From: Eledone cirrhosa
Taxonomy: Eukaryota
Assembly: GCA_964016885.1 (NCBI GenBank)
Contig: OZ024751.1
Location: 46,376,001-46,440,000, forward strand
Reading direction: 5' to 3'
Length of the DNA stretch: 64,000 nucleotides
Of the stretch, positions 9,001 through 51,042 are shown piece after piece. A program made the position numbers and the translations under genes. The notes below the pieces were generated by a model. That model was given only the letters and a program-made list of their open reading frames with translations. It had not been told where the DNA came from and did no database searches. Each line of letters begins with the position of its first letter. Within the stretch, counting starts at the first letter, position 1.

Positions 9001-12000
9001 GTAGTGTGGTAGTGAGATAGTGTAGTGTGGTAGTGAGATAGTGTAGTGTGGTAGTGAGGACATGTAGTGTGGTAGTGAGATAGTGTAGTGTGGTAGTGAG
9101 ATAGTGTAGTGTGGTAGTGAGATAGTGTAGTGTGGTAGTGAGATAGTGTAGTGTGGTAGTGAGATAGTGTAGTGTGGTAGTGAGATAGTGTAGTGTGGTA
9201 GTGAGATAGTGTAGTGTGGTAGTGAGATAGTGTAGTGTGGTAGTGAGATAGTGTAGTGTGGTAGTGAGGACATGTAGTGTGGTAGTGAGATAGTGTAGTG
9301 TGGTAGTGAGATAGTGTAGTGTGGTAGTGAGATAGTGTAGTGTGGTAGTGAGATAGTGTAGTGTGGTAGTGAGATAGTGTAGTGTGGTAGTGAGATAGTG
9401 TAGTGTGGTAGTGAGATAGTGTAGTGTGGTAGTGAGATAGTGTAGTGTGGTAGTGAGATAGTGTAGTGTGGTAGTGAGATAGTGTAGTGTGGTAGTGAGA
9501 TAGTGTCGTGTGGTAGTGAGATAGTGTAGTGTGGTAGTGAGGACATGTTGTGTGGTAGTGAGATAGTGTAGTGTGGTAGTGAGATAGTGTAGTGTGGTAG
9601 TGAGGACATGTTGTGTGGTAGTGAGATAGTGTAGTGTGGTAGTGAGGACATGTTGTGTGGTAGTGAGATAGTGTCGTGTGGTAGTGAGATAGTGTAGTGT
9701 GGTAGTGAGATAGTGTAGTGTGGTAGTGAGGACATGTTGTGTAGTAGTGAGGACATGTTGTGTGGTAGTGAGATAGTGTCGTGTGGTAATGAGATAGTGT
9801 CGTGTGGTAGTGAGATAGTGTAGTGTGGTAGTGAGATAGTGTAGTGTGGTAGTGAGATAGTGTAGTGTGGTAGTGAGATAGTGTAGAGTGGTAGTGAGAT
9901 AGTGTAGTGTGGTAGTGAGATAGTGTCGTGTGGTAATGAGATAGTGTAGTGTGGTAGTGAGATAGTGTAGTGTGGTAGTGAGATAGTGTAGTGTGGTAGT
10001 GAGATAGTGTAGTGTGGTAGTGAGATAGTGTAGTGTGGTAGTGAGATAGTGTCGTGTGGTAATGAGATAGTGTAGTGTGGTAGTGAGATAGTGCAGTGTG
10101 GTAGTGAGATAGTGTAGTGTGGTAGTGAGATAGTGTCGTGTGGTAGTGAGATAGTGTAGTGTGGTAGTGAGGACATGTTGTGTGGTAGTGAGATAGTGTA
10201 GAGTGGTAGTGAGATAGTGTAGTGTGGTAGTGAGGACATGTTGTGTGGTAGTGAGATAGTGTCGTGTGGTAGTGAGATAGTGTAGTGTGGTAGTGAGGAC
10301 ATGTTGTGTGGTAGTGAGATAGTGTAGTGTGGTAGTGAGATAGTGTAGTGTGGTAGTGAGATAGTGTAGTGTGGTAGTGAGGACATGTTGTGTGGTAGTG
10401 AGATAGTGTCGTGTGGTAGTGAGGACATGTTGTGTGGTAGTGAGGACATGTTGTGTGGTAGTGAGATAGTGTAGTGTGGTAGTGAGATAGTTTAGTGTGG
10501 TAGTGAGGACATGTTGTGTGGTAGTGAGATAGTGTAGTGTGGTAGTGAGATAGTGTAGTGTGGTAGTGAGGACATGTTGTGTGGTAGTGAGATAGTGTTG
10601 TGTGGTAGTGAGATAGTGTAGTGTGGTAGCGAGATAGTGTAGTGTGGTAGTGAGATAGTGTAGTGTGGTAGTGAGATAGTGTAGTGTGGTAGTGAGATAG
10701 TGTAGTGTGGTAGTGAGATAGTGTAGTGTGGTAGTGAGATAGTGTAGTGTGGTAGTGAGATAGTGTAGTGTGGTAGTGAGATAGTGTAGTGTGGTAGTGA
10801 GATAGTGTAGTGTGGTAGTGAGGACATGTAGTGTGGTAGTGAGATAGTGTAGTGTGGTAGTGAGATAGTGTAGTGTGGTAGTGAGATAGTGTAGTGTGGT
10901 AGTGAGATAGTGTAGTGTGGTAGTGAGATAGTGTAGTGTGGTAGTGAGATAGTGTAGTGTGGTAGTGAGATAGTGTAGTGTGGTAGTGAGGACATGTAGT
11001 GTGGTAGTGAGATAGTGTAGTGTGGTAGTGAGATAGTGTAGTGTGGTAGTGAGATAGTGTAGTGTGGTAGTGAGATAGTGTAGTGTGGTAGTGAGATAGT
11101 GTAGTGTGGTAGTGAGATAGTGTAGTGTGGTAGTGAGATAGTGTAGTGTGGTAGTGAGATAGTGTAGTGTGGTAGTGAGATAGTGTAGTGTGGTAGTGAG
11201 ATAGTGTCGTGTGGTAGTGAGATAGTGTAGTGTGGTAGTGAGGACATGTTGTGTGGTAGTGAGATAGTGTAGTGTGGTAGTGAGATAGTGTAGTGTGGTA
11301 GTGAGGACATGTTGTGTGGTAGTGAGATAGTGTAGTGTGGTAGTGAGGACATGTTGTGTGGTAGTGAGATAGTGTCGTGTGGTAGTGAGATAGTGTAGTG
11401 TGGTAGTGAGATAGTGTAGTGTGGTAGTGAGGACATGTTGTGTAGTAGTGAGGACATGTTGTGTGGTAGTGAGATAGTGTCGTGTGGTAATGAGATAGTG
11501 TCGTGTGGTAGTGAGATAGTGTAGTGTGGTAGTGAGATAGTGTAGTGTGGTAGTGAGATAGTGTAGTGTGGTAGTGAGATAGTGTAGAGTGGTAGTGAGA
11601 TAGTGTAGTGTGGTAGTGAGATAGTGTCGTGTGGTAATGAGATAGTGTAGTGTGGTAGTGAGATAGTGTAGTGTGGTAGTGAGATAGTGTAGTGCGGTAG
11701 TGAGATAGTGTAGTGTGGTAGTGAGATAGTGTAGTGTGGTAGTGAGATAGTGTCGTGTGGTAATGAGATAGTGTAGTGTGGTAGTGAGATAGTGCAGTGT
11801 GGTAGTGAGATAGTGTAGTGTGGTAGTGAGATAGTGTCGTGTGGTAGTGAGATAGTGTAGTGTGGTAGTGAGGACATGTTGTGTGGTAGTGAGATAGTGT
11901 AGAGTGGTAGTGAGATAGTGTAGTGTGGTAGTGAGGACATGTTGTGTGGTAGTGAGATAGTGTCGTGTGGTAGTGAGATAGTGTAGTGTGGTAGTGAGGA

Positions 12001-13062
12001 CATGTTGTGTGGTAGTGAGATAGTGTAGTGTGGTAGTGAGATAGTGTAGTGTGGTAGTGAGGACATGTTGTGTGGTAGTGAGATAGTGTAGTGTGGTAGT
12101 GAGATAGTGTAGTGTGGTAGTGAGGACATGTTGTGTGGTAGTGAGATAGTGTAGTGTGGTAGTGAGATAGTGTAGTGTGGTAGTGAGGACATGTTGTGTG
12201 GTAGTGAGATAGTGTAGAGTGGTAGTGAGATAGTGTAGTGTGGTAGTGAGGACATGTTGTGTGGTAGTGAGATAGTGTAGTGTGGTAGTGAGATAGTGTA
12301 GTGAGGTGGTGAGATAGTGTAGTGTGGTAGTGAGATAGTGTAGTGTGGTAGTGAGGACATGTTGTGTGGTAGTGAGATAGTGTAGTGTGGTAGTGAGATA
12401 GTGTAGTGTGGTAGTGAGATAGTGTAGTGTGGTAGTGAGATAGTGTAGTGTGGTAGTGAGGACATGTTGTGTGGTAGTGAGATAGTGTAGAGTGGTAGTG
12501 AGATAGTGTAGTGTGGTAGTGAGATAGTGTAGTGTGGTGTGGTAGTGAGGACATGTTGTGTGGTAGTGAGATAGTGTAGTGTGGTAGTGAGGACATGTTG
12601 TGTGGTAGTGAGATAGTGTAGTGTGGTAGTGAGATAGCGCAGTGTGGTAGTGAGATAGTGTAGTGTGGTAGTGAGATAGTGTAGAGTGGTAGTGAGATAG
12701 TGTAGTGTGGTAGTGAGGACATGTTGTGTGGTAGTGAGATAGTGTCGTGTGGTAATGAGATAATGTAGTGTGGTAGTGAGGACATGTTGTGTGGTAGTGA
12801 GATAGTGTCGTGTGGTAATGAGATAGTGTAGTGTGGTAGTGAGGACATGTTGTGTGGTAGTGAGATAGTGTAGAGTGGTAGTGAGATAGTGTAGTGTGGT
12901 AGTGAGGACATGTTGTGTGGTAGTGAGATAGTGTAGAGTGGTAGTGAGATAGTGTAGTGAGGTGGTGAGATAGTGTAGTGAGGTGGTGAGGACATGTGTG
13001 GTGTAGTGTAGTGTGGTAGTGACGACATGTTGCGTGGTGGTGTAGTGTGATGGTGATGACAT
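1..13062. repeat. 21-bp minisatellite array (GTGTGGTAGTGAGATAGTGTA; main variant GTGTGGTAGTGAGGACATGTT), about 620 units, runs off the window start
   Basis: Tandem periodicity is directly visible. Units degenerate at the right edge (12960-13062). The long minus-strand ORFs are translations of the repeat. Confidence 0.98.
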
Positions 13063-13730: not shown

Positions 13731-14407
13731 TTAAAAAACAACAACATTCAGTTGAGAAATATCAACAATATTAGTTGACCCATTTAAATTTTAGCTAAAA
13801 AAAAAATCTGCTTTTTCCTAAATCAAATTTTATTGTGGGTGAAGAAGATGGATGATAATAAGGTTGTGCATTCGATTTGCATACTAGGTGATGAGTTTTG
13901 TCCTTGAGCAAAACACTTCAAATCCAGAATGAGCCTTGGGCTTTGTCCAGCCTGTACAATCTCGAAAAATGGATGTAAAACAATAACTCATATCACTGAA
14001 ATTTTATTGTGCTTTGTACAGTCTAAGATAATTAAAATTCTGTAAGTGCTATAGATTTAAGTGCTGTAGAATTTAGTGCTGTAGATACACTATATCTGCT
14101 TTATTTATATGAAATACAATCTAGCCTCAACCATGCTCTGTCTTTATTTATGAAATATAAGATAGCTTCAATCATGCAGCTTTGGTTACACAATCACTGG
14201 AAAGAGTTTTCGTTTTGGTAACCACTGGGTGCATTTGATGTGCAAGCAAGTGTTAAAATTATTTTAATTTATTTTATTAAATCTGCAATCATTATCATCA
14301 TCATCATTTAACGTCCACTTTCCCAGCTATCAAAAGTTGGACAGGTCTTTACAGACAGGGTCAGTACTAAAGCAGGGCTACTGACCTCAAGAAGGCTGCG
14401 TGTTCAG

Positions 14408-14717
14408 ATCACGTCGGGGTCACCAGTTTAGTGAATTGGTTTATTAGTTTAATCTTCTCCGGAAGATACCGCTGGTAACCAACCACTAATTCAATAAGAA
14501 AGAAGATATAGATATCCGGGCATGCAATATAGAGGTGATATGCTCTGTACATATAGTGTTCAGTTCCGAAGTAGTCGCAAGAGTATAGAGAGTTGCTCGT
14601 AACAACGAGGCCGGCAGTGAATAAGAGTGTGAGAAACACAAGTCTCGTCTATTTATTATGCCTATGGGAAGTAACTTTAATTAATTCTTTTTTTTTTTTA
14701 CCCTAGGGGTCGCTACA
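14408..14717 (-). mobile_element. LTR retrotransposon remnant (Gypsy-like 5' LTR plus tRNA-Trp primer binding site)
   Basis: The minus strand begins TGTAGCGACCCC (14717) and has AATAAA near the LTR end. It then reads TGGTGACCCCGACGTGAT (14425-14408), the complement of the tRNA-Trp 3' end. Confidence 0.8.
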
Positions 14718-14954
14718 GACCTCTCAGACAGGCTGGGGTTTGTATCTTACTTATATACAGTTCCATGTTCTACCAAGTTCATTTATCATGGTGCTAGCAC
14801 TAAGGAAGTAGTCATGTCTTTGACACAATTTCAGATAAGTTTCAAAGGCAACCATTGCTATGACTTAGAAACAAGTTGTTTTCAAACTAAAAATGTGATT
14901 TTTTTTCTTTATGAATTTATTTCTGTTCATTGTAACTTCAATATCTATTTTCAG

Positions 14955-15020
14955 GTTACTATAGTTGGTGTGCTGATAATTCTTACTGCTCTCAACATTT
15001 TGAAACCTCTACAGAATAAT
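14955..15020 (+). CDS. Internal coding exon of a multi-pass membrane protein gene (VTIVGVLIILTALNILKPLQNN)
   Basis: tattttcag| acceptor and |gtaagt donor. 66 nt, phase 0-0, open, hydrophobic. Confidence 0.8.
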
Positions 15021-21854: not shown

Positions 21855-21935
21855 GTCATTATATTAATGGTAATAGTCTTTGTCGGTGATGTCTTCGCTT
21901 TTATTTCATTTTGTATCTTTTGCGATTTGGCAGAT
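21855..21935 (+). CDS. Internal coding exon, transmembrane helix (VIILMVIVFVGDVFAFISFCIFCDLAD)
   Basis: ttttctgtttcag| acceptor and |gtaagt donor. 81 nt, phase 0-0, open, hydrophobic. Confidence 0.85.
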
Positions 21936-24569: not shown

Positions 24570-27500
24570 AACCCTCTCGCTAACTACCCCATACACCTCC
24601 CACCCGCCCCCACTCTCCCCCATTATTATTAGGACCAATCATAAGTCAGCGGCCTATGCTATCACTTCTGGTTGCTTGCCGATATGATGGATGGACTATG
24701 GAATTCTGGAGTTTGAAAAATCTGGACACTCAGTGACAATGCCAAAGATAAAGACAAATTCACCACATGCTGCTGGACGAAAAGACAAGGACTCCTCCTC
24801 TTTGTTTCGGCTGCGGATGGCCAACATAGCCCCAACCCCATCCCCCTCACCCCTCCCCGCGCCCCACCGTTCCCACCCACCAAACGCAATCCAAAACTTC
24901 AGAGTTGGTACCATGAATGTAGGCACCTTAAAAGGTTGCTCTAACAAGGTTGTAGAAATGCTTGAACGTAAGGAGGTTGATGTTTGCTGTATCCAAGAGA
25001 CCAGGTGGAGGGGTGGGTCTGCTAGATTCATTGTGGGTAAAAAACGATGCTATAAGCTTTTCTGGGTGGGAAATGAAAATGGGCTGGGTGGGGTAGAAAT
25101 CATGTTAGCAGAAAAATGGGTAGATAAGATAACAGACGTAAATAGAGTGAACGACAGAATAATTAAAATAAGACTTGTCCTAAATAGAACTACTGTGATA
25201 GTAATATCTGCGTATGCACCCCAATCCGGACTGCCTGACGCTAATAAAAGACAGATTCTATGAGACATTGATGCTCACTACCTCCCAAATAACCGACAGT
25301 GACTACATAATTATTGCTGGCGACCTAAATGGTCACGTTGGACAACATTGTGATGGCTATGACGGAATCCATGGAGGCTATGGGTTTGGTACTAGAAATG
25401 AGGAAGGCTCCAGAATCCTGGAATTCTGTGACGCAAATAACCTAACTATCTGTAACACTAATTTCAAAAAACGAGACAATCACTTGATCACCTATAGATC
25501 AGGGGAACACGCCAGTCAGATAGATTATATCCTTACCAGAAGACGTGATAGAGTGTCTGTTGTAAACACTAAATCCCTCCCCCATGAAGAATGCACCTCC
25601 CAACATAGACTCATAGTCAGCGACCTCATAGTCAGGACAAGACGTACTCGACAACAGAGGAGGACTATCCTCAGGAGAAAAATATGGAAGCTAAAGGACC
25701 TCACAGCCAGTAATAAATTTAAAAGCATATTACTTGATGCTTTCGACAGTAAGGAAGAGCAATTAGAGTCATACAATATACAGGAACAGTGGGAATTCCT
25801 GAAAGCTAACCTGCTGAAGGCGGCAGATGAAGTCTGTGGCTGGAGCAGGCCTATAGGCAGGAGGAAAGTAACGTGGTGGTGGAACAGTAAGGTGGAGGAG
25901 TCAATTAAGGCCAAAAAGCAGGTTTGGAAAGTATGGCGGGATGGGGGAAGTAGAGAAGACTATCAAGTGGCCAGGAGGGAAGCTAGGAGACAAGTGTACT
26001 TTGCAAGAAGAGAAGCAGAGGAAAGAAAGTTCAAGCATGTTCTACAACGCGAGGACCAAAAACGTGAGGTGTTCAGGATTGCTAGGCAATGTGTCAAGGA
26101 AAACTGTGATATTGTCGGGGAGAAGTGTGTCCTTAATGATGATGGTGTACTTGCCATCACTGACGCTGATAAGAAGGTAGCTTGGAAGTGTCATTACGAA
26201 AGGCTACTAAATGAGGAGAATAAATGGAAGAAAGACAGTCTCCCCCACATCGATCCAATAGACGACCAGCAGTGCTAGTTGAAGGTAGTATAATAAGTAA
26301 GGCAATGAAAGACATGAATACGGGTAAGACGGTTGGGCCTTCGGAAATAGTTGCTGAAATGCTGAAAGCATCTGGAACGGTGGGACACACCATGGTCACC
26401 CGGATAGTAAACCAAGTCATACAGAATGGGACCGTTCCAAAGGACTGGCGTAGCAGCATCATCATTAACTGCTACAAGGGTAAAGGAGATGCTCTTGATA
26501 GGGGTAACTATAGAGGCATTAAATTAATCGACCACGTCATGAAGGCCACAGAAAAAGTAATAGCGCAACTAATCAGAGAACGAATTGATCTAGATGAGAT
26601 GCAGTTCGGGTTTGTGTCAGGCAAAAGTACCACAGACGCTCTTTTCATTGTACGACAACTACAGGAGAAGTACCTAGCTAAAAGTAAACCCCTATACTTA
26701 GCTTTTGTCGACTTGGAGAAAGCCTTCGACACAGTCCCCCGCTCCATTATCTGGTGGGCTCTTAGAAAACTAGGTGTTGATGAATGGCTTGTGAGAGCTA
26801 TACAAGCCATGTATAAAGAGTTTAGCGTAAAAGTTGGTATTCATCAGGGCTCCGTTCTTAGCCCCCTACTATTTATTATTGCCCTTCAGGCTATAACAGA
26901 GGAGTTCAAGACCGGCTGCCCATGGGAACTCCTATATGCAGATGATCTAACGCTCATAGCTGCATCAATCGCTGAACTAGAGAAGAAATTCCAAACATGG
27001 AAGCATGGCCTAGAATCAAAAGGCCTTAAAGTTAACTTGTCTAAGACTAAAGTTCTAGTTTGTAGGAAGGAAAATAGGGCACCGGTCCCATCTGGGAAAT
27101 GGCCATGCTCAGTGTGTAGGAAAGGAGTAGGCAGAAACTCCATTTTATGTCCCAAATGCAAAGTATGGGTGCATAAAAGATGTAGTGGGATCACAGGTAA
27201 GCTAACTAAGAATATAGATTTTATATGTGGCCGGTGCTCTGGTGCAATAAGTAGCAGCAAGTGCCTACAGAATACTAGCTCATTCCATTGCACAGATGGT
27301 TCTATAGAAATAGTGAACACCTTCCGTTACCTGGGTGACAAAATCAGCAGTGGGGGAGGGTGCTCTGAAAGTACAGTAGCTAGAGTCAGAACGGGATGGA
27401 AAAAGTTCAGAGAGCTTATACCACTATTAGCCGCTAAAGGGTTCTCTCTAAAAATGAAAGGCAGGCTGTATGATGCCTGCATACGAACAGCAATGTTACA

Positions 27501-28281
27501 TGGCAGTGAGACCTGGGCATTGTGTGCAGAGGATATACGCAGACTGGAGAGAAACGAAGCTTGCATGCTCCGCTGGATGTGTAATAGTAATATACGTGAA
27601 TGGCAAAGCATAAACGAGCTAAGGGAGAAATTAGGAATAAGAGGGATCAGATGTTGTTCACTTGAGAGAAGACTATGTTGGTATGGTCACGTGATGCACA
27701 TGAAAGACGATAGCTGTATAAAAAAGTGTAGGGCGATAAAAATAGACGGTAGCCACGGAGTAGGCAGACCCAGAAAAACCTGGGACGACTTGATAAATTC
27801 CGACCTCACACACTTACACCTCTCCAAGACAATGTCACTGGACCAAGATCTTTGGCGCTACACAGTCATACAGAAGACCCGCCTTGCCTAAGTACAAAGC
27901 GAAACCTACAGTCAGTAGGCACCTCTAACAAAATACACCCCCCCCCGTCCACTACCCCCCCTATCCCCCCCCCCCCCTTAAATGTGAAGTTATGTTGGTA
28001 CCACAACATCCAGTCTGAAACAAATGAGATCGTGTAGGTGTCACGACAAAAAAACACACAGTCCACGCTGTAATGTGGCCGTGTAGGTAACACGGTAAAA
28101 ACCTCCCAGTCCACACTGTAAATGTGGTTGGTGTTAGGAAGGGCATCCAGCCGTAGAAAACCCGCCAGACAGTCCTATACGAGCAGGACAACAAATCTTG
28201 CCTCAAGTGGGAAACCTCCCGTCCAAACCCATGCAAGGGTGGAAGATGACCGTTAAACGATGATGATGATGATGATGATGA
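24570..28281 (+). mobile_element. Near full-length RTE-clade LINE (APE endonuclease, RT, PHD-type finger), disrupted
   Basis: APE motifs GTMNVGTL, CIQETRW, SAYAPQ, GDLNGH, QIDYIL. RT motifs FVDLEKAFD, QGSVLSP, YADD. (GAT)n tail. Frameshifts near 25245 and 26260. The 5' boundary is approximate. Confidence 0.95.
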
Positions 28282-29755: not shown

Positions 29756-29767
29756 GATTTCAGACAG
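29756..29767 (+). CDS. 12-nt microexon (GATTTCAGACAG, DFRQ)
   Basis: cttctattttgttatatttcag| acceptor and |gtatgt donor. Phase 0-0, in frame with the flanking exons. Confidence 0.65.
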
Positions 29768-31544: not shown

Positions 31545-33936
31545 TGTACCCCACAGCATAGGTTAGTTGTTAGTGATATCTCAGTAAGCAAGAGATGGAA
31601 TGAGACATATAGGAAGGTGTGGAGAAGAAAGGTTTGGAAGCTAAAAGACCTTTCACTAAAATTCAAATTTAGGAAAGCCCTTCAAGATGTATATGACGAA
31701 AAAGAAGACGATTTAGAGACGTATGACATAGATAATAACTGGAAGTTCTTACGTGACAACTTGCTGCAGGCTACTGATGAAACCTGTGGCTGGAGCAGAG
31801 CTACAACCAGACAGAGAGTGACCTGGTGGTGGAACAGCACAGTAGATAAGGCTATTAGAGACAAAAGACTAGCATGGAAGGCTTGGAAAAAGGGTGGGAG
31901 TAGGGAAGAATATACAGCCACTAAGAGAGAAGCTAGACGTCAGGTGTACTTAGCACGCAGGGAGGCAGAGAGTAGGAGGTTTGCCAATGTTCTGCGACGG
32001 GAAGATCAGAGGCGTGCGGTGTTCCACATTGCAAGGCAGTGTGTCAATGCAAATCAGGATGTTGTTGGAGATAAATGTGTCCGGGATGATGCCGGTGTAC
32101 TTAGTGTCTCGAATGACCAGAAAAAAGGAGGCCTGGAAATGTCATTATGAGAGACTGATGAATGTGGAGAACGAATGGGAGAGAGAGAAATTACCCTTGG
32201 TAGATCCGACAGAGGGACCAGCTATTGAGATTGACGAATATAGGGTCCAAGAGGCGATTAGGGAAATGAAAAATGGTAAGGCGGCCGGACCATCGGGAAT
32301 AGTTGCTGAGATGCTGAAGGCATCAGGGGACGTAGGCACTAAACTGGTTGCATGCATCATCAATCAGGCTATATATGGTGGTGTCATACCCAAAGACTGG
32401 TGCAGCAGTATTCTCATAAATTGCTACAAAGGTAAAGGGGATGCTTTGGAGAGGAGCAATTATAGGGGTATAAAACTGATAGATCAGGTTATGAAAGTGG
32501 CAGAAAGGATTTTAGCACAACTAATTAGAGAAAGGGTCAAACTAGATGAGATGCAGTTTGGTTTTGTGCCTGGGAAGAGTACAACAGATGCCCTCTTCTT
32601 GGTGAGACAAATGCAAGAGAGGTTCTTAGAGAAGAATAAGCCACTATACTTAGCCTTTGTTGACCTAGAGAAGGCCTTTGATAGGGTACCCCGATCTGTC
32701 ATCTGGTGGTCCCTAAGGAAGCTAGGTGTTGAGGAATGGCTTGTGAGGACAGTGCAAACTTTGTACAGAGGTACTCTCAGTAAAGTCAGGGTAGGAATGG
32801 AGTTTAGTGAGGAATTCCAGATACAAGTAGGAGTACATCAGGGTTCGGTCCTCAGCCCGCTCTTGTTCATTATAGTCCTCCAAGCCATAACAGAGGAGTT
32901 TAAGACTGGCTGTCCATGGGAACTTCTCTATGCTGACGATCTGGCTCTTATAGCAGAATCAGTAGAGGAGCTAGAGAATAAATTCCGGCTATGGAAACAG
33001 CAGTTGGAAGCAAGAGGACTGAGAGTAAATCTAGTTAAGACAAAAGTGTTGATGAGTAGAAAAGAGGACAAAACCCTGATTCCGTCAGGGAAATAGCCAT
33101 GTTCGATATGCAGAAAAGGAACTGGCATAAATTCTATAAAATGCACACAATGCAGGTCCTGGGTACACAAGAGATGTAGTGGGATAGCAGGCAAACTAAC
33201 AGGTAGGGAGAAATATGTATGCAGTAGATGTACAGGGAAATTAGACAGTAGAAGTCGCACTGATAGACACATTTTTCAAATGCGAGAGGGCGCTATAGAA
33301 GTGGTGGATAGCTTCTGGTACCTAGGAGATCAGATTAGCATGGGAGGAGGGTGTTCTGAGGCCATAGTATCTAGAATAAGGACGGGTTGGAAGAAGTTTA
33401 GGGAGCTGCTTCCTCTGTTGACGAAGAAGGGTTTCTCCCTGCGTACGAAAGGCCGGTTGTATGATGCCTGTGTGAGGAGCACGATGCTGCATGGTAGTGA
33501 GACATGGGCAGCAACCGCAGAGGATATGCGACGGCTGGAGAGAAATGAGGCAAGCATGCTCCGTTGGATGTGCAGTGTAAATGTGCGTGAACGACCCAGC
33601 ATAAATGTGTTGAGAGAGAAACTGTGTCTGAGAGGGATAGAATGTAATGTACGGGAGAGGAGACTGAGGTGGTATGGACATGTAATGCGCATGGAGGATG
33701 ACCGATGGGTGAAGAAGTGCCAGGAAATGCTAGTTGAAGGAAGACGTGGTAGAGGTAGACCACGAAAAACATGGGCGGAGGTGGTGAGAACAGACCTCAG
33801 ATCATTGAAGCTCACGGTGGAGATGTCGAGGGACCGTGACGAGTGGAGAGATGCTGTGCTGAATAAGAACCGTCCCACCCTTGCAAGCAGGGAAAAGCGG
33901 ACGTAAAATGATGATGATTATGATGATGATGATGAT
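31545..33936 (+). mobile_element. 5'-truncated RTE LINE, second subfamily (RT plus PHD-type finger)
   Basis: FVDLEKAFD, QGSVLSP, YADD. Frameshift near 32125, TAG stop at 33094, (GAT)n tail. Confidence 0.95.
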
Positions 33937-37905: not shown

Positions 37906-38680
37906 ATATATACAGGCCTAGACAGGGATAGGCTTCACCAGTTTTAAAATGCCCAAGAAATGCTGTATCTCAATATGGTGCCCCTACAACCCTGTCAAAA
38001 GTTACAGGACCGTACACACACACACACACCCACACACACACACATATATATATATGCATACACACACACACACTCATACATAAACATACACATACACACT
38101 CATATGAAGACATACATAATTGCACATGCAGATACACAAAAACTATACAAGGATATGAATAATTACTGAAATACAGGTATTTATATTTTAAATATGTTAC
38201 CTTTTCGAATTAGATATATACATATATATAATGTGGTTGGTGTTAGGAAGGGCATCCAGCTGTAGAAAACTTGCCAGATACAGTTCTATATGAGCAACAT
38301 ATGGTCAACCGAACAATCTTGCCTCAAGTGGGACAATTACCATCTAACCCATGCCAGCATGGAAGATTTTGTTTTGGTCATGTCAGGGAAGAAGCAGTAC
38401 TCTCCACGCTTCACCAGTTGCGGATTGTTGAGAGAGAAAGAGTACGTCTGTGGTGCTCATGCTTAAGTGTCAAGACATGGCATTACTCAAAACTGACTTG
38501 CAACTATCATGTTCATATATGTGTGTGTGTATGTATGATTATGTGTATGTTCGTGTGTATGTATGTATATATGTCAGTATACTGTATATATATGAGTGTG
38601 TGTGCATAACATTTTGAAAATGTATATATTTGGCTGTATTGTTTTCTCATTTATTTGGCTATTTTGTTTTCTCATTTCAG

Positions 38681-38692
38681 TTAAACAAATAC
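38681..38692 (+). CDS. 12-nt microexon, copy 1 (TTAAACAAATAC, LNKY)
   Basis: ttttgttttctcatttcag| acceptor after an ~80-nt AG-free zone, |gtaagt donor, phase 0-0. Confidence 0.75.
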
Positions 38693-39892
38693 GTAAGTAT
38701 ACATGTTCTTTTAATATTTTCCCCCCAAAAAATCGTTTTGGTGTGTAGAGGAAAGTATGAAAGATGAGGATCACCGTGGCAGAATGAATTTATTTCCATG
38801 CAGACCTGCCAACCTCTAAAAACCCAAACTGGGAGTACCATGAAAAAATTCTAGAAATGTAGCAAAAAGGGGAGATTTTACACAATGAAAGCTATCCCCT
38901 TTTTCACAAGAGAAGACATTTCAGACTCTCCTCAAAGTGGATGGGAATCTCCCTGCTGGACGGGGAGAGTTGACAAGGTTGTAATTGAACAATAAACAGT
39001 AAATTACAAATTTCTATTTCTACACAATGAAGCACAATAAACTGTAGAACTGTCAAACTTTTGAACTGAAGTGAGCATGGAACAATAATTCCACTGAACA
39101 TAATTCTGTGGTGCCAGAAAAAATTGAGTACTCCTCAATCTATCGGAGTGTAATTTGAACCTGTTGGAAAAAATTGTGTACCTCTGTTTAGACAAAACAT
39201 AATATATAGGCAATAAACACAAGCACACTTGAAACACGTGATTGTGATATGATTGGCTGTCATTAAATAATTAAACAAATACACAGTACTTGTTAGATAA
39301 TACTCAATACAAGTTCAATATGTGACACTAGGTATCAGCAAGAATCTTGTCACACTGCCAATACACCTTAATTTCTTTCTTGTCACTAATCTATGGGCCC
39401 TATGACTCCCGATGGAAGTCATAGAATCTCTATTGTGGTACGCAGCTTGTGTCTTGCACATTTTTGGATTTCGTACAGCCTATCCCTCTCTGTGTCTGAA
39501 CACAGATGATTACTTCCAGAGAAAGAAGAGAATAGGAAAAGAGAGAGAGAGAAAGAAGTAGAGAGAGAGTGTGAAAGAGAGAGCGAAATAAATATATATA
39601 TCTCCCTCTTTTACTCATCCATTACTGGTGCCATAGCAAATATCATTGTCCTTCTTAACCTCTCCAGCACTGCTATGTGAATTACTCTCGTCTAAAACCT
39701 GGTGTCATCTTCAAGGACATCTTTCAGTGTGATGTTTTCTCTCTCAAGTCATCTGCATACATCTGGTTTCAAGAGAAAATCTCTGCCAGGAGTTTCATTG
39801 TTGTTTCATTTCCTCCTAGGCAACATGCTAAAGAGAATTTGTGTTTTATATTTCTGTATATATCTTGTTATTTCCTGAACTATATATATATG

Positions 39893-39965
<73 letters not shown>

Positions 39966-40831
39966 TTCAATGAAAACAGAAAGCTGGATTCTAAAATTCC
40001 ATTAATATTGCAATAATTACTATACGTATTTCTATGGCTTGCTTACATAATTAGATCATGACACAAAATATTTGGCAACATCATCAGATGTAAATTGCAA
40101 AAATTAAGTAACCAATGAATGGATTATAGCAAACATAAACAGAGAATAGAATTGATTCGGAGACGGCCTGTCATTCATTGTTTCTGTTATGACGAACCAC
40201 CTCCGGATGTGGGTCAGCATGTAAATAGTTGCTCACTTCCTTCTATCAAGCTAGTACCATAAATAGTAAACTACTAAAGTAAATATTTTACAGGGATTGC
40301 TATCATTTCTTCATATTTTACTAACACAATGTCTTAAGAGAGGGAGAGAGAGAGAGAGAGTGACTCATTAAAGCTGAAATATTGTTCATTGTTAATAATT
40401 TTATACTTCTTTATTCCTATTCTGCTTTATATTGTAAGTATACATTATTGGATAATATCTTATAGTAATTAGCAACGTTCATGAAAGGGCTCCATATATC
40501 CTAGTTAGTAGACAGTGATTGGAGTGTGGACACTTTAGTTGCCTATCACTCAACCATAAAGCATGTTGTACTGTGTTACAGGGTAGCAGGCATGTATCTG
40601 ACCTGACCATGACCATGATATATATATATATTGTATCGTGAAGTATGAAATTTATAGAAATTTGTAGAAAAAGACAAATATCTACAAATTTCATACTTGA
40701 CAAACCAATATATATATATATATATAGAGAGAGAGATGTAGTTATATTTTGTGTTATTCACTTTCTAATTAAATAGCTCTGTTCTATACATAGAGCACTC
40801 TTTTTTTCCTTTGCTTTTCCTTTGGAATTAC

Positions 40832-40876
<45 letters not shown>

Positions 40877-41670
40877 ACACATATATATATATATATATAT
40901 AAATATAAATTATTTATAACACTTACATATCAGTATCTCTATTAGTGTGTGCGTGTGTGTGTCTGTGTGTGTGCATGTATGTATGTATGTCTTCTAGTCT
41001 TCATTAAGGTATCTCTATAGGAGAAAGCTACTCTGATATAAAACCTGTAACTTTGTTTGTATCCAATGATGTAGACCAGTCCACCTTTTTGGGTGAATGC
41101 ATTCGATGTTCAGAGAGTGGGATTGGCGCCATGGAATGCCTTTCTTAAAAAAGCTTCAAGCACAGGAATCGCTTGATATGTGACATTTTTTGTGATGTGT
41201 GTCATTGCTGGCCATAGGCAAGTCCCTAGCAGGATTAAAAGCCATGTCTGTGATGCTCATGCTTAAGTATCAAGACATGGCATTACTCAAAACTGAGTTG
41301 CAGCCATCATGTATGTATGTTCATATGTATGTATGTTTGTATATATGTATGTCTGTATGTTCATATATGTGTGTGTATGTATGATTATGTGTACGTATGA
41401 TTATTTGTATTGACAAACCAATATATATATGTATATAAACATAAATTATTTACAACAGTTATAAAACTGTGTCTGTATTAGTGTGTGTGTGTGTGGAGCA
41501 TTACTCAAAACTGACTTTCAGCCATCATGTTCATATATGTGTGTGTGTATATATGTGTATATGTCCATATACTGTGTGTATATGAGTGTGTGTGCATAAC
41601 ATTTTGAAAATGTATATATTTGGCTGTCTTGTTTTCTCATTTATTTGGCTATTTTGTTTTCTCATTTCAG

Positions 41671-41682
41671 TTAAGGGGATCC
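41671..41682 (+). CDS. 12-nt microexon, copy 2 (TTAAGGGGATCC, LRGS)
   Basis: Same acceptor and |gtaagt donor context as copy 1. Confidence 0.75.
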
Positions 41683-42883
41683 GTAAGTATACATGTTCTT
41701 TTAATATTTTCCCAAAAAACAATCGTTTTGGTGTGTAGAGGAAAGTATGAAAGATGAGGATCACCGTGGCAGAATGAATTTATTTCCATGCAGACCTGCC
41801 AACCTCTAAAAACCCAAACTGGGAGTACCATGAAAGAAATTCTAGAAATGTAGCAAAATAGGGAGATTTTACACAATGAAAGCTATCCCCATTTTCACAA
41901 GAGAAGACATCTGACACTCACCCCAAAGTGGGTGAGAATCTCCCTGTTGGACAGGGAGAGTTGACAAGTTTGTAATTGAACAATAAACAGTAAATTACAA
42001 ATTTCTATTTCTACACAATGAAGCACAATAAACTGTAGAACTGTCAAACTTTTGAACTGAAGTGAGCATGGAACAATAATTCCACTGAACATAATTCTGT
42101 GGTGCCAGAAAAAATTGAGTACTCCTCAATCTATCGGAGTGTAATTTGAACCTGTTGGAAAAAATTGTGTACCTCTGTTTAGACAAAACATAATATATAG
42201 GCAATAAACACAAGCACACTTGAAACACGTGATTGTGATATGATTGGCTGTCATTAAATAATTAAACAAATACACAGTACTTGTTAGATAATACTCAATA
42301 CAAGTTCAATATGTGACACTAGGTATCAGCAAGAATCTTGTCACACTGCCAATACACCTTAATTTCTTTCTTGTCACTAATCTATGGGCCCTATGACTCC
42401 CGATGGAAGTCATAGAATCTCTATTGTGGTACGCAGCTTGTGTCTTGCACATTTTTGGATTTCGTACAGCCTATCCCTCTCTGTGTCTGAACACAGATGA
42501 TTACTTCCAGAGAAAGAAGAGGATAGGAAAAGAGAGAGAGAGAAAGAAGTAGAGAGAGAGTGTGAAAGAGAGAGCGAAATAAATATATATATCTCCCTCT
42601 TTTACTCATCCATTACTGGTGCCATAGCAAATATCATTGTCCTTCTTAACCTCTCCAGCACTGCTATGTGAATTACTCTCGTCTAAAACCTGGTGTCATC
42701 TTCAAGGACATCTTTCAGTGTGATGTTTTCTCTCTCAAGTCATCTGCATACATCTGGTTTCAAGAGAAAATCTCTGCCAGGAGTTTCATTGTTGTTTCAT
42801 TTCCTCCTAGGCAACATGCTAAAGAGAATTTGTGTTTTATATTTCTGTATATATCTTGTTATTTCCTGAACTATATATATATG

Positions 42884-42926
<43 letters not shown>

Positions 42927-43670
42927 TTCAATGAAAACAGAAAGCTGGATTCTAAAATTCCATTAATATTGCAATAATTACTATACGTATTTCTATGGCT
43001 TGCTTACATAATTAGATCATGACACAAAATATTTGGCAACATCATCAGATGTAAATTGCAAAAATTAAGTAACCAATGAATGGATTATAGCAAACATAAA
43101 CAGAGAATAGAATTGATTCGGAGACGGCCTGTCATTCATTGTTTCTGTTATGACGAACCACCTCCGGATGTGGGTCAGCATGTAAATAGTTGCTCACTTC
43201 CTTCTATCAAGCTAGTACCATAAATAGTAAACTACTAAAGTAAATATTTTACAGGGATTGCTATCATTTCTTCATATTTTACTAACACAATGTCTTAAGA
43301 GAGGGAGAGAGGGAGAGAGAGAGTGACTCATTAAAGCTGAAATATTGTTCATTGTTAATAATTTTATACTTCTTTATTCCTATTCTGCTTTATATTGTAA
43401 GTATACATTATTGGATAATATCTTATAGTAATTAGCAACGTTCATGAAAGGGCTCCATATATCCTAGTTACTAGACAGTGATTGGAGTGTGGACACTTTA
43501 GTTGCCTATCACTCAACCATAAAGCATGTTGTACTGTGTTACAGGGTAGCAGGCATGTATCTGACCTGACCATGACCATGATATATATATATATTGTATC
43601 GTGAAGTATGAAATTTATAGAAATTTGTAGAAAAAGACAAATATCTACAAATTTCATACTTGACGAACCA

Positions 43671-43707
<37 letters not shown>

Positions 43708-43802
43708 TGTAGTTATATTTTGTGTTATTCACTTTCTAATTAAATAGCTCTGTTCTATACATAGAGCACTCTTTTTTTCCTTTGCTTTTCCTTTGGAATT
43801 AC

Positions 43803-43853
<51 letters not shown>

Positions 43854-44665
43854 ACGCATATATATATATATATATATAAATATAAATTATTTATAACACT
43901 TACATATCAGTATCTCTATTAGTGTGTGCGTGTGTGTGTCTGTGTGTGTGCATGCATGTATGTATGTCTTCTAGTCTTCATTAAGGTATCTCTATAGGAG
44001 AAAGCTACTCTGATATAAAACCTGTAACTTTGTTTGTATCCAATGATGTAGACCAGTCCACCTTTTTGGGTGAATGCATTCGATGTTCAGAGAGTGGGAT
44101 TGGCGCCATGGAATGCCTTTCTTAAAAAAGCTTCAAGCACAGGAATCGCTTGATATGTGACATTTTTTGTGATGTGTGTCATTGCTGGCCATAGGCAAGT
44201 CCCTAGCAGGATTAAAAGCCATGTCTGTGATGCTCATGCTTAAGTATCAAGACATGGCATTACTCAAAACTGAGTTGCAGCCATCATGTATGTATGTTCA
44301 TATGTATGTATGTTTGTATATATGTATGTCTGTATGTTCATATATGTGTGTGCATGTTTATGTGTGTGTGTATGTATGATTATGTGTACGTATGATTATT
44401 TGTATTGACAAACCAATATATATATGTATATAAACATAAATTATTTACAACAGTTATAAAACTGTGTCTGTATTAGTGTGTGTGTGTGTGGAGCATTACT
44501 CAAAACTGACTTTCAGCCATCATGTTCATATATGTGTGTGTGTATATATGTGTATATGTCCATATACTGTGTGTATATGAGTGTGTGTGCATAACATTTT
44601 GAAAATGTATATATTTGGCTGTCTTGTTTTCTCATTTATTTGGCTATTTTGTTTTCTCATTTCAG

Positions 44666-44677
44666 TTAAGGGGATAC
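44666..44677 (+). CDS. 12-nt microexon, copy 3 (TTAAGGGGATAC, LRGY)
   Basis: Same acceptor and |gtaagt donor context as copy 1. Confidence 0.75.
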
Positions 44678-45863
44678 GTAAGTATACATGTTCTTTTAAT
44701 ATTTTCCCAAAAAACAATCGTTTTGGTGTGTAGAGGAAAGTATGAAAGATGAGGATCACCGTGGCAGAATGAATTTATTTCCATGCAGACCTGCCAACCT
44801 CTAAAAACCCAAACTGGGAGTACCATGAAAGAAATTCTAGAAATGTAGCAAAATAGGGAGATTTTACACAATGAAAGCTATCCCCATTTTCACAAGAGAA
44901 GACATCTGACACTCACCCCAAAGTGGGTGAGAATCTCCCTGTTGGACAGGGAGAGTTGACAAGTTTGTAATTGAACAATAAACAGTAAATTACAAATTTC
45001 TATTTCTACACAATGAAGCACAATAAACTGTAGAACTGTCAAACTTTTGAACTGAAGTGAGCATGGAACAATAATTCCACTGAACATAATTCTGTGGTGC
45101 CAGAAAAAATTGAGTACTCCTCAATCTATCGGAGTGTAATTTGAACCTGTTGGAAAAAATTGTGTACCTCTGTTTAGACAAAACATAATATATAGGCAAT
45201 AAACACAAGCACACTTGAAACACGTGATTGTGATATGATTGGCTGTCATTAAATAATTAAACAAATACACAGTACTTGTTAGATAATACTCAATACAAGT
45301 TCAATATGTGACACTAGGTATCAGCAAGAATCTTGTCACACTGCCAATACACCTTAATTTCTTTCTTGTCACTAATCTATGGGCCCTATGACTCCCGATG
45401 GAAGTCATAGAATCTCTATTGTGGTACGCAGCTTGTGTCTTGCACATTTTTGGATTTCGTACAGCCTATCCCTCTCTGTGTCTGAACACAGATGATTACT
45501 TCCAGAGAAAGAAGAGGATAGGAAAAGAGAGAGAGAGAAAGAAGATGAGAGAGAGTGTGAAAGAGAGAGCGAAATAAATATATATATCTCCCTCTTTTAC
45601 TCATCCATTACTGGTGCCATAGCAAATATCATTGTCCTTCTTAACCTCTCCAGCACTGCTATGTGAATTACTCTCGTCTAAAACCTGGTGTCATCTTCAA
45701 GGACATCTTTCAGTGTGATGTTTTCTCTCTCAAGTCATCTGCATACATCTGGTTTCAAGAGAAAATCTCTGCCAGGAGTTTCATTGTTGTTTCATTTCCT
45801 CCTAGGCAACATGCTAAAGAGAATTTGTGTTTTATATTTCTGTATATATCTTGTTATTTCTTG

Positions 45864-45894
<31 letters not shown>

Positions 45895-46786
45895 CTTCAA
45901 TGAAAACAGAAAGCTGGATTCTAAAATTCCATTAATATTGCAAAAATTACTATACGTATTTCTATGGCTTGCTTACATAATTAGATCATGACACAAAATA
46001 TTTGGCAACATCATCAGATGTAAATTGCAAAAATTAAGTAACCAATGAATGGATTATAGCAAACATAAACAGAGAATAGAATTGATTCGGAGACGGCCTG
46101 TTATTCATTGTTTCTGTTATGACGAACCACCTCCGGATGTGGGTCAGCATGTAAATAGTTGCTCACTTCCTTCTATCAAGCTAGTACCATAAATAGTAAA
46201 CTACTAAAGTAAATATTTTACAGGGATTGCTATCATTTCTTCATATTTTACTAACACAATGTCTTAAGAGAGGGAGAGAGAGAGAGAGAGAGAGTGACTC
46301 ATTAAAGCTGAAATATTGTTCATTGTTAATAATTTTATACTTCTTTATTCCTATTCTGCTTTATATTGTAAGTATACATTATTGGATAATATCTTATAGT
46401 AATTAGCAACGTTCATGAAAGGGCTCCATATATCCTAGTTAGTAGACAGTGATTGGAGTGTGGACACTTTAGTTGCCTATCACTCAACCATAAAGCATGT
46501 TGTACTGTGTTACAGGGTAGCAGGCATGTATCTGACCTGACCATGACCATGATATATATATATATTGTATCGTGAAGTATGAAATTTATAGAAATTTGTA
46601 GAAAAAGACAAATATCTACAAATTTCATACTTGACAAACCAATATATATATATATATAGAGAGAGAGAGATGTAGTTATATTTTGTGTTATTCACTTTCT
46701 AATTAAATAGCTCTGTTCTATACATAGAGCACTCTTTTTTTCCTTTGCAATTACGTAACACACACACACATACACACACACACATA

Positions 46787-47126
46787 TCATCATCATCATC
46801 ATCATTTTACGTCCACTTTTCCCTGCTTGCAAGGGTGGGACGGGAACTGATTCTGGCTTGATTTCTACAGCTGGATGCCCTTCCTAACACCAACCTCTTT
46901 TACAGTGAGTGCTGGGTGGTTTTTGCCGTGGCACCTACACGACCACTTTGCAGTGGAATGATAGGGACCCCAATCCCTATCATCTCATTTCTACAGCTGA
47001 GTAAACTGGAGCAATGTGAAATAAAGTGTCTTGCTCAAGGAAACAACACATCACCCGGTCTGAGAATCAAACTCACAACCTTTCGATTGTAAGGCCAATG
47101 CTCGAACCACTAAGCCATGTGCCTCC
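46787..47126 (-). mobile_element. CORE SINE inserted only in the third duplication unit, tail of the RTE subfamily 2 type
   Basis: Absent from units 1 and 2. The tail TTTTACGTCCACTTTTCCCTGCTTGCAAGGGTGGGACG matches the reverse complement of 33871-33908. Confidence 0.85.
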
Positions 47127-48152
47127 ATATATATGTATAAATATAAATTATTTATAACAGTTACATATCGGTATCTCTATTAGTGTGTGTGTCTGTGTGT
47201 GTGCATGTATGTATGTATGTCTTCTAGTCTTCATTAAGGTATCTCTATAGGAGAAAGCTACTCTGATATAAAACCTGTAACTTTGTTTGTATCCAATGAT
47301 GTAGACCAGTCCACCTTTTTGGGTGAATGCATTCGATGTTCAGAGAGTGGGATTGGCGCCATGGAATGCCTTTCTTAAAAAAGCTTCAAGCATAGGAATC
47401 GCTTGATATGTGACATTTTTTGTGATGTGTGTCATTGCTGGCCATAGGCAAGTCCCTAGCAGGATTAAAAGCCATGACTGTGATGCTCATGCTTAAGTAT
47501 CAAGACATGGCATTACTCAAAACTGAGTTGCAGCCATCATGTATGTATGTATGTTCATATGTATGTATATATGTATATGCATGTGTGCATGAGTATGTAT
47601 ATGCACGGGGATACAGAAATAGTCGGACTGGATATCTTATCGCACAGTTAAACCACTGGGAGTGAAGGACCCCTATCCTTTGTCAGGGCATTTTTCTAGG
47701 AGAAGGCAACTCTGGGACAACTCTGACATAAAACCTGCGGTTCAGTAGTTACCGATGATGTTGATCTTTTCTTCTTTTCGGGTTATAGCTTCTGTCAGTC
47801 AGAGAGTGGGATTGGCTCTGTGCACAGTCTTTCCTCACTTTATATAAAATCTTTACACACATGCATTGCACAAGAGAATTAATTAATAATTATTGATAAT
47901 GGTATATCATGCAATGGCCATACTCGATAACAAGGGGGCAGCCATCATCATGTTCGTATGTCTGTATGTCTGTATGTCTGTATGTTCGTATATGTGTGTG
48001 TGTGTGTATCTATGATTATGTGTTTGTGTGTATGTAATGTATGTATGTCCGTGTACTGTGTGTATATGTGTGTGTGCATAACATTTTGAAAATGTATATA
48101 TTTTGCTGTCTTGACTTCTCATTTATTTGGCTGTTTTGTTTTCTCATTTCAG

Positions 48153-48164
48153 ATAAACCTTTCC
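48153..48164 (+). CDS. 12-nt microexon, copy 4 (ATAAACCTTTCC, INLS)
   Basis: gttttgttttctcatttcag| acceptor and |gtaagt donor, phase 0-0. Confidence 0.75.
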
Positions 48165-48974
48165 GTAAGTATCCATGTTCTTTTAATATTTTCAAAAAAA
48201 CAATCGTTCCTAATTTAGATAAAATGCCAGTAAATTTTGGTGTGTAGAGGAAAGTATGAAAGATGAGGATCACCTTCGCAGAATGTATTTATTTCCATGC
48301 AGACCTGCCAACCTCTAAAAACCCAAACTGGGAGTACCATGAAAAAAAGTCGAGAAATGTGGCAAAATGGGCAGATTTTACATAACGAAAGCTATGTCCA
48401 TTTTCAGAGAAGACATCTCAGACTCACCCCAAAGTGGGTGAGAATCTCCCTGTTGGACAGGGAGAGTTGACAAGTTTGTAATTGAACAATAAACAGTAAA
48501 TTACAAATTTCTATTTCTACACAATGAAGCACAATAAACTGTAGAACTGTCAAACTTTTGAACTGAAGTGAGCATGGAACAATAATTCCACTGAACATAA
48601 TTCTGTGGTGCCAGAAAAAATTGAGTACTCCTCAATCTATCGGAGTGTAATTTGAACCTGTTGGAAAAAATTGTGTACCTCTGTTTAGACAAAACATAAT
48701 ATATAGGCAATAAACACAAGCACACTTGAAACACGTGATTGTGATATGATTGGCTGTCATTAAATAATTAAACAAATACACAGTACTTGTTAGATAATAC
48801 TCAATACAAGTTCAATATGTGACACTAGGTATCAGCAAGAATCTTGTCACACTGCCAATACACCTTAATTTCTTTCTTGTCACTAATCTATGGGCCCTAT
48901 GACTCCCGATGGAAGTCATAGAATCTCTATTGTGGTACGCAGCTTGTGTCTTGGACATTTTTGGACTTTGTAGC

Positions 48975-49820: not shown

Positions 49821-50013
49821 GCATGTCAACAGCTCAGTGTATCAAGCTGTAAGTAGGTACCACAGAATAGTATAGTTCACTGTACTGTGTCTGTATCAAT
49901 GACCAAGGTACTTGACTATCATCAGCCCAGGGACACAAAGTTGTAAGTAGGTATTTCTTCAATTCAACTCACTCTGCTTTATTATATCAGTATTTTATTT
50001 ATTCCTTTTCTAG

Positions 50014-50121
50014 ATTCCGGCCCACTTAGCACTGAGTATCATCTCTGTACTCTTGTTGCTTGTCATTATTATCATTTTAAGCTTCATTTTATACATCCTC
50101 AACAGCTATCGGACAAATACT
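50014..50121 (+). CDS. Internal coding exon, transmembrane helix (IPAHLALSIISVLLLLVIIIILSFILYILNSYRTNT)
   Basis: ttattccttttctag| acceptor and |gtaagt donor. 108 nt, phase 0-0, long hydrophobic run. Confidence 0.88.
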
Positions 50122-50162
50122 GTAAGTATTAACCAATGATATCCTCATTATTATACACAATA

Positions 50163-51042
50163 AGGGCGGTGGAGTCGCAGTATTGGTAGAGAGTCGGATG
50201 CCATGCTTTGCAGCATTGAATTACGTCCCTTTACTGTCTGAGTTCAAATCCTGCCTAGGTTAACTTTGCCTTTCATCCTTAAGGGATCAATAAAATAAAG
50301 TACCAGTAATGCACTGGGTAATTGCTGGCCTTGTGCCTAAAGTAGAAACAATTATTATATATATATATAAAACTTGAGAAACACAATCGGTATATATTAC
50401 ACCATAACCATATATGTTGTGAACACAATATGCTGATGGGTCGATAAAATAAAGTACCAGTAATGCACTGGGTAATTGCTGGCCTTGTGCCTAAAGTAGA
50501 AACAATTATTATATATAAATATAAAACTTGAGAAACACAATCGGTATATATTACACCATAATCATATATGTTGTGAACACAATATGCTGATGGGTCGATA
50601 AAATAAAGTACCAGTAATGCACTGGGTAATTGCTGGCCTTGTGCCTAAAGTAGAAACAATTATTATATATATATATATAAAACTTGAGAAACACAATCGG
50701 TATATATTACACCATAATCATATATGTTGTGAACACAATATGCTGATGGGTATCATTTCATCCTTACGGGGTCGATAAAATAAAGTACCAGTAATGTACT
50801 GGGTAATTTCTGGCCTTGTGCCAATAGTAGAAACAATTATTTCACACTATAATGGTGGATTGGCAGTATCGGTAGAGGGTCGGACGTCATGCTTTGATGC
50901 ATAGAGTTACGGCCCTTTCCATTCTGAGTTCAAATCCCGCCGAGGTCAACTTTGCCTTTCATCCTTATGGGCTCGATAAAATAAAGTACCAGTAATGTAC
51001 TGGGTGATTGCTGGCCTTGTGCCAAAAGTAGAAACAATTATT
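50163..51042 (+). mobile_element. Cluster of Meta-like SINEs, including a ~155-bp x3 tandem duplication of SINE tail plus flank
   Basis: tRNA heads at 50163 and 50852. Repeat units start at ~50283, 50438 and 50592. Confidence 0.85.

Follow-up and report, generated by a model that had tools for sequence, protein, structure and literature searches.

We analyzed a 64,000-nt stretch of the 3.0-Gb genome of Eledone cirrhosa (assembly GCA_964016885.1, contig OZ024751.1, 46,376,001-46,440,000, which is G000:C11:46376001-46440000 in our own coordinates; this whole stretch is called the window, and positions refer to it unless stated otherwise). The analysis showed that an intron of a gene predicted to encode a four-helix membrane protein carries four tandem copies of a putative micro-exon of only 12 nt, and that these copies differ from one another far more within the 12 nt than in the DNA around them, part of which is identical in all four units. 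With moderate confidence, we propose that the copies are alternative cassettes for one loop of the protein, whose differences are maintained by selection.

Self-blastn divided the region of ~38480-48972 into four tandem units on the forward strand, three of them ~3 kb long and the fourth only ~1 kb: unit 1 (~3.0 kb, 38480-41497), unit 2 (~3.0 kb, 41498-44492), unit 3 (~3.5 kb, 44493-47981, partly rearranged past ~46790) and the truncated unit 4 (~1 kb, 47982-48972). Each unit contains, on the same strand, one 12-nt in-frame segment bounded by TTTCAG, which forms a pyrimidine-rich acceptor, and GTAAGT. These candidate micro-exons, located by splice signals and a genome pattern search and, for the first three, also by pairwise alignment, would encode LNKY (copy 1, 38681-38692), LRGS (copy 2, 41671-41682), LRGY (copy 3, 44666-44677) and INLS (copy 4, 48153-48164), an N-x-S sequon arising in the last. 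All four are of phase 0, end in C and lie ~3 kb apart, and a splice-site scan of the window plus 180 kb of neighboring DNA placed their acceptor/donor pairs among the strongest in the region. Since every copy combines phase 0 with a strong acceptor and a GTAAGT donor, each is predicted to be spliceable in frame. The flank pattern of the micro-exons has four exact matches genome-wide, namely the four array copies, and no fifth copy was found in the 244 kb searched. The constancy of the splice sites and of the 12-nt length and the absence of stops, as described in the initial annotation of this DNA, hold in four of four copies.

We compared the exon with the remaining aligned unit for every pair of copies. 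Copies 1 and 2 differ at 5 of 12 exon positions versus 27 of 2948 outside the exon, copies 1 and 3 at 4 of 12 versus 29 of 2133, and copies 1 and 4 at 5 of 12 versus 33 of 879; for copies 2 and 4 the counts are 6 of 12 and 25 of 883, and for copies 3 and 4 they are 7 of 12 and 25 of 883. Copies 2 and 3 differ at 1 of 12 exon positions versus 8 of 2155 (p=0.049). The initial annotation had given the same counts of 5 of 12 for copies 1 and 2 and for copies 1 and 4, together with about one change in the 80 nt upstream of copies 1 and 2, where we counted one; it had also correctly described a single non-synonymous S/Y change between copies 2 and 3 amid near-identical units. In the four-way alignment, 7 of the 12 exon columns are variable and require at least 10 changes (0.83 changes per column). 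The background is unequal along the unit, and the near zone (-110 to +297 relative to each exon) is the conservative comparison for the exon excess; it holds 40 changes in 390 columns (~0.10 per column). Given these near flanks, 1.2 changes would be expected in the exon, where the observed minimum is 10 (Fisher p=1e-4), and with the near zone as background a 12-column window with 10 changes occurred in 5 of 20,000 scan permutations (p=0.00025), so that the enrichment within the 12 nt is significant against this zone as well. The best 12-column window outside the exon holds 5 changes, and of the 20 splice-proximal columns on each side of the exon, one varies upstream and one downstream. A diverged patch at 38900-38980, which had been raised as something that might make the exon unremarkable, is real, yet its densest 12 columns hold no more than 4 changes, against 10 in the exon.

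Beyond the near zone the divergence disappears: from +298 to +775, 0 of 478 columns vary among the four units. In unit 1 this block occupies 38979-39456 (forward strand), and a dispersed repeat with ~80%-identical copies elsewhere makes up its first ~350 nt. In the next block out, 9 of 1339 positions differ between the sequences after copy 3 and after copy 1; far upstream, the blocks of copies 3 and 4 show 11 differences in 461 positions. The earlier view that the flanks had been homogenized is supported. Plain recent duplication explains copies 2 and 3. However, given that a 478-nt block identical in four units lies beside three old exon lineages, plain duplication is insufficient for the array as a whole, and the combination requires at least two homogenizing exchanges, each of which spared the exon zone. 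Within the exon the changes are clustered in runs, with four adjacent changes on the branch to copies 2 and 3 and three adjacent changes on the branch to copy 4. At the S/Y site, copies 1 and 3 share one state and copies 2 and 4 the other, which implies a repeat mutation or a micro-conversion, producing new combinations. As a separate observation, three of the four differences between copies 1 and 3 are A-to-G, which is the direction of A-to-I editing, a process common in coleoids; the duplicates might hard-wire edited states. Local folds revealed no long duplex over copy 1.

The exon model of the host gene is confirmed, at the level of predicted proteins, by orthologs from Argonauta hians and Octopus vulgaris. 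A search with the first coding exon, T1, found the A. hians hypothetical protein GAB1605111.1 (hereafter P0001; 62% identity, E 7.9e-12; one of 6 candidates), and a search with this protein found O. vulgaris CAI9734194.1 (E 1.3e-29; one of 629 candidates). With the two orthologs as queries, tblastn recovers T1, E1, E2, E5 and E6 in order, all on the forward strand. T1 (156 nt), which encodes helix 1 and the beginning of helix 2, is not in the window but 28 kb upstream of it, at G000:C11:46348009-46348164 (L008:2009-2164) and past a ~41-kb satellite-filled intron, and was identified by the scan and by tblastn with the Argonauta ortholog (E 1e-16). It is followed by E1 (14955-15020, 66 nt, phase 0/0; the second half of helix 2 and a short inner loop; scan, and tblastn with the O. 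vulgaris ortholog at 59% over 22 aa) and E2 (21855-21935, 81 nt, phase 0/0; helix 3; tblastn with P0001 at 71% over 28 aa, single copy in the genome). A further micro-exon candidate, E4 (29756-29767, forward strand, 12 nt, DFRQ), is recognized by its splice signals, is present in a single copy and would encode the beginning of the loop that links helices 3 and 4. Its acceptor flank resembles the array flank to a degree that equals or exceeds 60 of 61 other sites, the donor flank being unremarkable, and E4 is possibly an older paralog of the array exons. Downstream of the array are E5 (50014-50121, 108 nt, phase 0/0; helix 4; supported by a contig described below and by tblastn with P0001 at 68%) and the last coding exon E6 (58192-58266), which begins with GT, encodes a Thr-rich tail and the stop, and was chosen by eye and confirmed by the P0001 C-terminus.

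The predicted protein has 169 aa, with four hydrophobic segments, a first loop of ~7 residues and a basic tail rich in Thr. Helices 3 and 4 are linked by a loop of ~16 residues that would include E4 and one array exon and contains no CCG; in this one-copy model, 24 of 507 coding nt are micro-exonic. This loop is probably extracellular, because basic residues follow helices 2 and 4 and because there are sequons in loop 1 of the Eledone protein, in copy 4 and in the Argonauta loop. In the cross-species alignment, conservation is lowest in the two outer loops.

Evidence on splicing comes from four sequencing runs that cover the E5 region (X1 to X4), which belong to one study and at most two samples, none of them recorded as RNA. 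When aligned to 49830-50285, X1 and X2 each give one contig across intron and exon, and X3 a shorter one. In X4, a contig spans exactly 50014-50123 and then continues into 33 letters unlike the genome; a low-depth intron-exon contig is also present, and additional X4 contigs span 50014-50043 only. The 2-nt overhang of the X4 contig past E5 equals the GT with which E6 starts. Based on the contig ends and this overhang, we read X4 as RNA and E5 as spliced. Depth arithmetic that assumes no upstream extension gives 557.88, 818.92 and 242.44, compared with 557.9, 818.9 and 242.4 observed, and an upstream partner ending in AG would give a depth of 614.17 where 557.9 was observed. The observed depths are reproduced only on the assumption of no upstream extension, which indicates that a direct E4-E5 junction does not occur at measurable depth and that the upstream partner of E5 does not end in G. 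The array exons, which end in C, fit the X4 depth and are candidates for this partner.

An apparent parallel was found in Argonauta. The model P0001 has 383 residues and contains a 107-residue tandem repeat exactly between the equivalents of E2 and E5. The two repeat copies show seven differences, of which three are in the first four residues (QARM/AIRI), one is at residue 8 and three are in the last six, with 93 identical residues between. The residues that follow QARM and AIRI (eight compared) resemble the translated donor-side intron of the Eledone array exons: among 586 GTRAG read-throughs, 6 and 4 reach an equally high score. Eledone array copies account for three of these high scorers, and only background scores were obtained with the donors of E1, E2, E4 and E5. 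The simplest reading of this resemblance is that the gene predictor ran twice through an orthologous micro-exon into the intron, and Argonauta thus appears, from its predicted protein, to have its own duplicated and diverged micro-exon in near-identical units. Past the first residues, the P0001 repeat has no match to Eledone introns, which suggests that the duplications were independent or that each lineage homogenized its own. A second variable block in P0001, at 202-207 and 309-314 (VGQSNY/GAQGNY), may be another duplicated micro-exon, perhaps the equivalent of E4.

We suggest the following course of events, of which the first two steps are shown by the sequence. An intron stretch carrying the four-codon exon was duplicated in tandem, every copy being predicted to be spliceable in frame. 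The non-exon DNA was homogenized between units by conversion or unequal crossover, but a zone of ~400 nt around each exon retained older differences, with a sharp peak in the exon. Selection may favor differing loops and remove conversions that erase them, so that one gene keeps several variants, which are possibly old alleles captured by duplication. The step of which we are least sure is that alternative splicing, probably of one exon out of four, would show different loops at the cell surface, where they might bind or evade a fast-changing outside partner; our guess, taken from the general pattern, is a pathogen or toxin ligand first and gamete or self-recognition second. Unequal crossover that captured old balanced alleles would give the same picture. 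The shape of the divergence peak, together with the apparent Argonauta parallel, adds support for selection. We also consider, much more tentatively, that in octopods the same micro-exon of an orphan surface protein has been tandemly copied recurrently in separate lineages, with conversion unifying the splicing context and selection diverging only the 12 coding bases. The gene would then display several variants of a recognition loop and be a minimal diversifier of the Dscam type, serving an arms race or the recognition of gametes or self.

Several points weigh against the selective explanation. The boundary of the near zone was picked after looking at the data. If adjacent changes are merged, the exon holds ~5 events, for which p≈0.009, and the value rises to 0.036 if there were 4 events and 0.13 if there were 3. 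The initial annotation had stated that all changes alter amino acids; this holds along only one mutational path, since at codon 3 one silent step is required between copies 2/3 and copy 4, and the replacement-only pattern is non-significant in either case (10 of 10, p≈0.08 given ~78% replacement sites; 9 of 10, p=0.32). The selection on the loop that it had proposed is supported by the position of the exons in a membrane-protein loop, the strong 12-nt excess and the peak shape, and not by a formal demonstration of positive selection, since four codons give no dN/dS power. With regard to splicing, the RNA nature of X4 is read from contig shape, and a skip from E2, which ends in T, to E5 fits the X4 depth equally well. 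Docking/selector RNA pairing is a feature of exclusive-splicing arrays, and a search for a docking element found none, the longest non-microsatellite complement being 11 nt and none of at least 8 nt lying before E5. The Argonauta parallel is drawn at the protein level from an automatic model, and for the O. vulgaris model there is no resemblance of this kind (its score is reached by 163 of 586 null read-throughs). The topology is deduced from charges and sequons, and in the reverse orientation the Thr-rich tail could be an outside mucin-like stalk. Finally, the AlphaFold models are poor (pLDDT 44.9 and 50.3), although one shows four long helices.

Some of these points would also be expected under neutral birth-and-death, in which one copy is used and the rest are silent, and in which a few multi-nucleotide or template-switch mutations fell in an unconstrained loop and the resulting mismatch blocks conversion and leaves an island. 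The clustering of the changes in runs, amounting to ~5 events, is consistent with such mutations, and the units contain dispersed repeats. A possible template also exists, because the 12-mer of copy 1 recurs exactly, over those 12 nt only, ~590 nt downstream in every unit (39271, 42262, 45257 and 48768), where 0.0016 occurrences per unit are expected by chance; it may have served as a template for copy 1, or the recurrence may be chance. In addition, copies 1 and 3 carry at the S/Y site the base that closes a 4-bp hairpin with the donor. However, even five events are more than expected locally (p≈0.009), all runs are confined to the 12 nt, with the splice sites and the frame spared in four of four copies, and the same confinement is seen in the Argonauta model. 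We regard the neutral explanation as unlikely, though a serious contender.

We also considered that the copies are symmetric cassettes combined freely, with zero to four included, which would yield up to 16 loops varying in length and sequence, as in schistosome micro-exon genes (MEGs). All four exons being of phase 0, with equally strong splice sites and a 3-kb spacing, there is no steric bar to joint inclusion, and the failure to find a docking element and the presence of at least six extra loop residues of ambiguous exon make-up in the O. vulgaris and Argonauta models point in the same direction. On the other hand, a loop of ~16 residues would double in length with all four exons, and we think this combinatorial use improbable. 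Least probable is a partial assembly artefact, in which alleles of a one- or two-copy locus were set in tandem or the unit of copies 2 and 3 was doubled, so that the variability would be allelic and due to balancing selection: units 2 and 3 do differ at just 9 of 2167 aligned positions, but three old exon lineages exceed the alleles of a diploid at one locus, the junctions and microsatellite lengths in self-blastn are particular to each unit, and the array lies within a 53.9-Mb contig.

The initial annotation had suggested paracellular selectivity, and such a role, of the claudin type, is not supported. Claudin/PMP22 tetraspans are marked by a large first extracellular loop with a W-GLW-C-C signature; here the first loop has ~7 residues, there is no Trp in T1 or in the N-terminal 100 aa of the orthologs, and no claudin model is present among the Pfam matches up to E 10. 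Tetraspanins have a large second loop with CCG and further cysteines, hallmarks that are likewise absent, the second loop here having ~16 residues and no CCG. Searches of Pfam, NCBIfam and PDB sequences gave no match above the cut-off for the gene or its orthologs. Fold searches returned generic helical bundles only, none with E<=0.001 (the best, a designed protein, had Z 9.1 and rmsd 3.6 over 86 aligned residues), a result that excludes no family. MS4A/CD20-like proteins have four membrane helices, a short first loop and both termini inside. By eye, the layout resembles theirs, with four hydrophobic segments, a very short first loop, a longer variable second loop and about one helix per exon, a resemblance that our tests neither confirm nor exclude. 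The CD20 domain PF04103 matched neither ortholog nor the locus, the queries being single exons or mis-predicted proteins; a genome-wide search with it gave 13 weak matches, none above the cut-off and none at the locus; and no solved MS4A structure was matched by query models of pLDDT 45-50. Homolog searches with E5 alone were also empty (0 of 91 candidates, 0 among 1.84 billion representatives and no usable Atlas match). At the sensitivity of the search the gene is single-copy, as E5 and E2 match only themselves; putative paralogs of T1 were discarded, since seven of its eight weak genome matches (E 1.8-7.6) proved on inspection to be simple-repeat noise.

Other features of the locus were recorded as well. 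Three further candidates, one at 14022-14041, one at 14707 and one at window-relative -31718, were excluded as coding exons because both orthologs join T1 directly to E1 and start at the T1 Met. A 104-codon open frame at 14709-15020, which runs into E1 behind the very strong acceptor at 14707, is missing from both orthologs and possibly reflects an alternative acceptor. At ~40374-40433, with equivalents in units 2 and 3, a hydrophobic 60-nt open frame extends up to a GTAAGT donor behind a weak acceptor and is probably not an exon. The intron between the first two coding exons is filled by a ~41-kb array of a 21-nt G/T-rich satellite (window 1-12990 plus G000:C11:~46348350-46376000), and a second satellite lies directly upstream of the first coding exon. 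The introns also hold three long GC-richer stretches (24900-27900, 31600-33900 and 52700-55300) that by eye and by their reading frames look like decayed LINE-type retroelements. Exons of the downstream neighbor match Flavoprotein PF02441 (L012:6881-7006 and L012:7900-8064), and this gene, presumably a phosphopantothenoylcysteine decarboxylase, is a useful synteny marker.

Micro-exons are known mostly as conserved switches, and duplicated-exon arrays as old, with large exons. If our explanation is true, a young array that varies in units of four codons, shows a conversion-resistant divergence peak and is apparently paralleled in a second octopod family would make a compact and testable case of selection acting through intragenic duplication. 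The locus also points to an unstudied cephalopod protein, probably of the cell surface, and both public annotations mis-predict exactly this loop, which suggests that standard gene prediction overlooks arrays of this kind. A literature search covering few subscription journals found no published description of the gene or of such an array, and the accessible parts of PMC11703226 and 10.64898/2026.09.05.749416 have no bearing on the locus.

The array can be compared with three kinds of known systems. For the exon 4 and 6 clusters of arthropod Dscam, the accessible part of PMC3236188 reports that neither conversion nor evidence of positive selection was found among paralogous exons; for the duplicated exons of Drosophila Gr39a, that of PMC2204066 reports purifying selection; and human mutually exclusive exons are catalogued in PMC9741552, as far as its accessible text goes. 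Like Dscam and Gr39a as described in these parts, the Eledone gene has homologous tandem exons of equal length and phase in a surface-protein gene, and its isoforms could differ in one exposed region. In contrast to them, its exon has four codons, its copies are very young (flanks 90-100% identical) and homogenized, and its exclusive splicing is a prediction. Schistosome MEGs, according to the available portion of PMC4350168, consist mostly of micro-exons, have signal peptides, are reported only from flatworms and include exon duplication in MEG-3. The array shares with MEGs, so described, symmetric micro-exons and a potential pool of proteins a few residues apart at an exposed surface, whereas the Eledone gene is micro-exonic in 24 of 507 nt, encodes a four-helix membrane protein and varies by substitution among paralogous copies. 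Finally, a divergence peak on a coding target amid converted introns is described in the accessible text of PMC3924837 as the signature of selection under conversion, in exon 5 of the red and green opsins, and that of PMC3728101 describes copepod GOT1 as a comparable divergence-peak case in duplicates. In line with what these texts describe for opsin and GOT1, the Eledone array combines low intron divergence with a peak on a few coding sites; unlike them, its duplicates are intragenic exon cassettes rather than whole genes, and the target is 12 nt.

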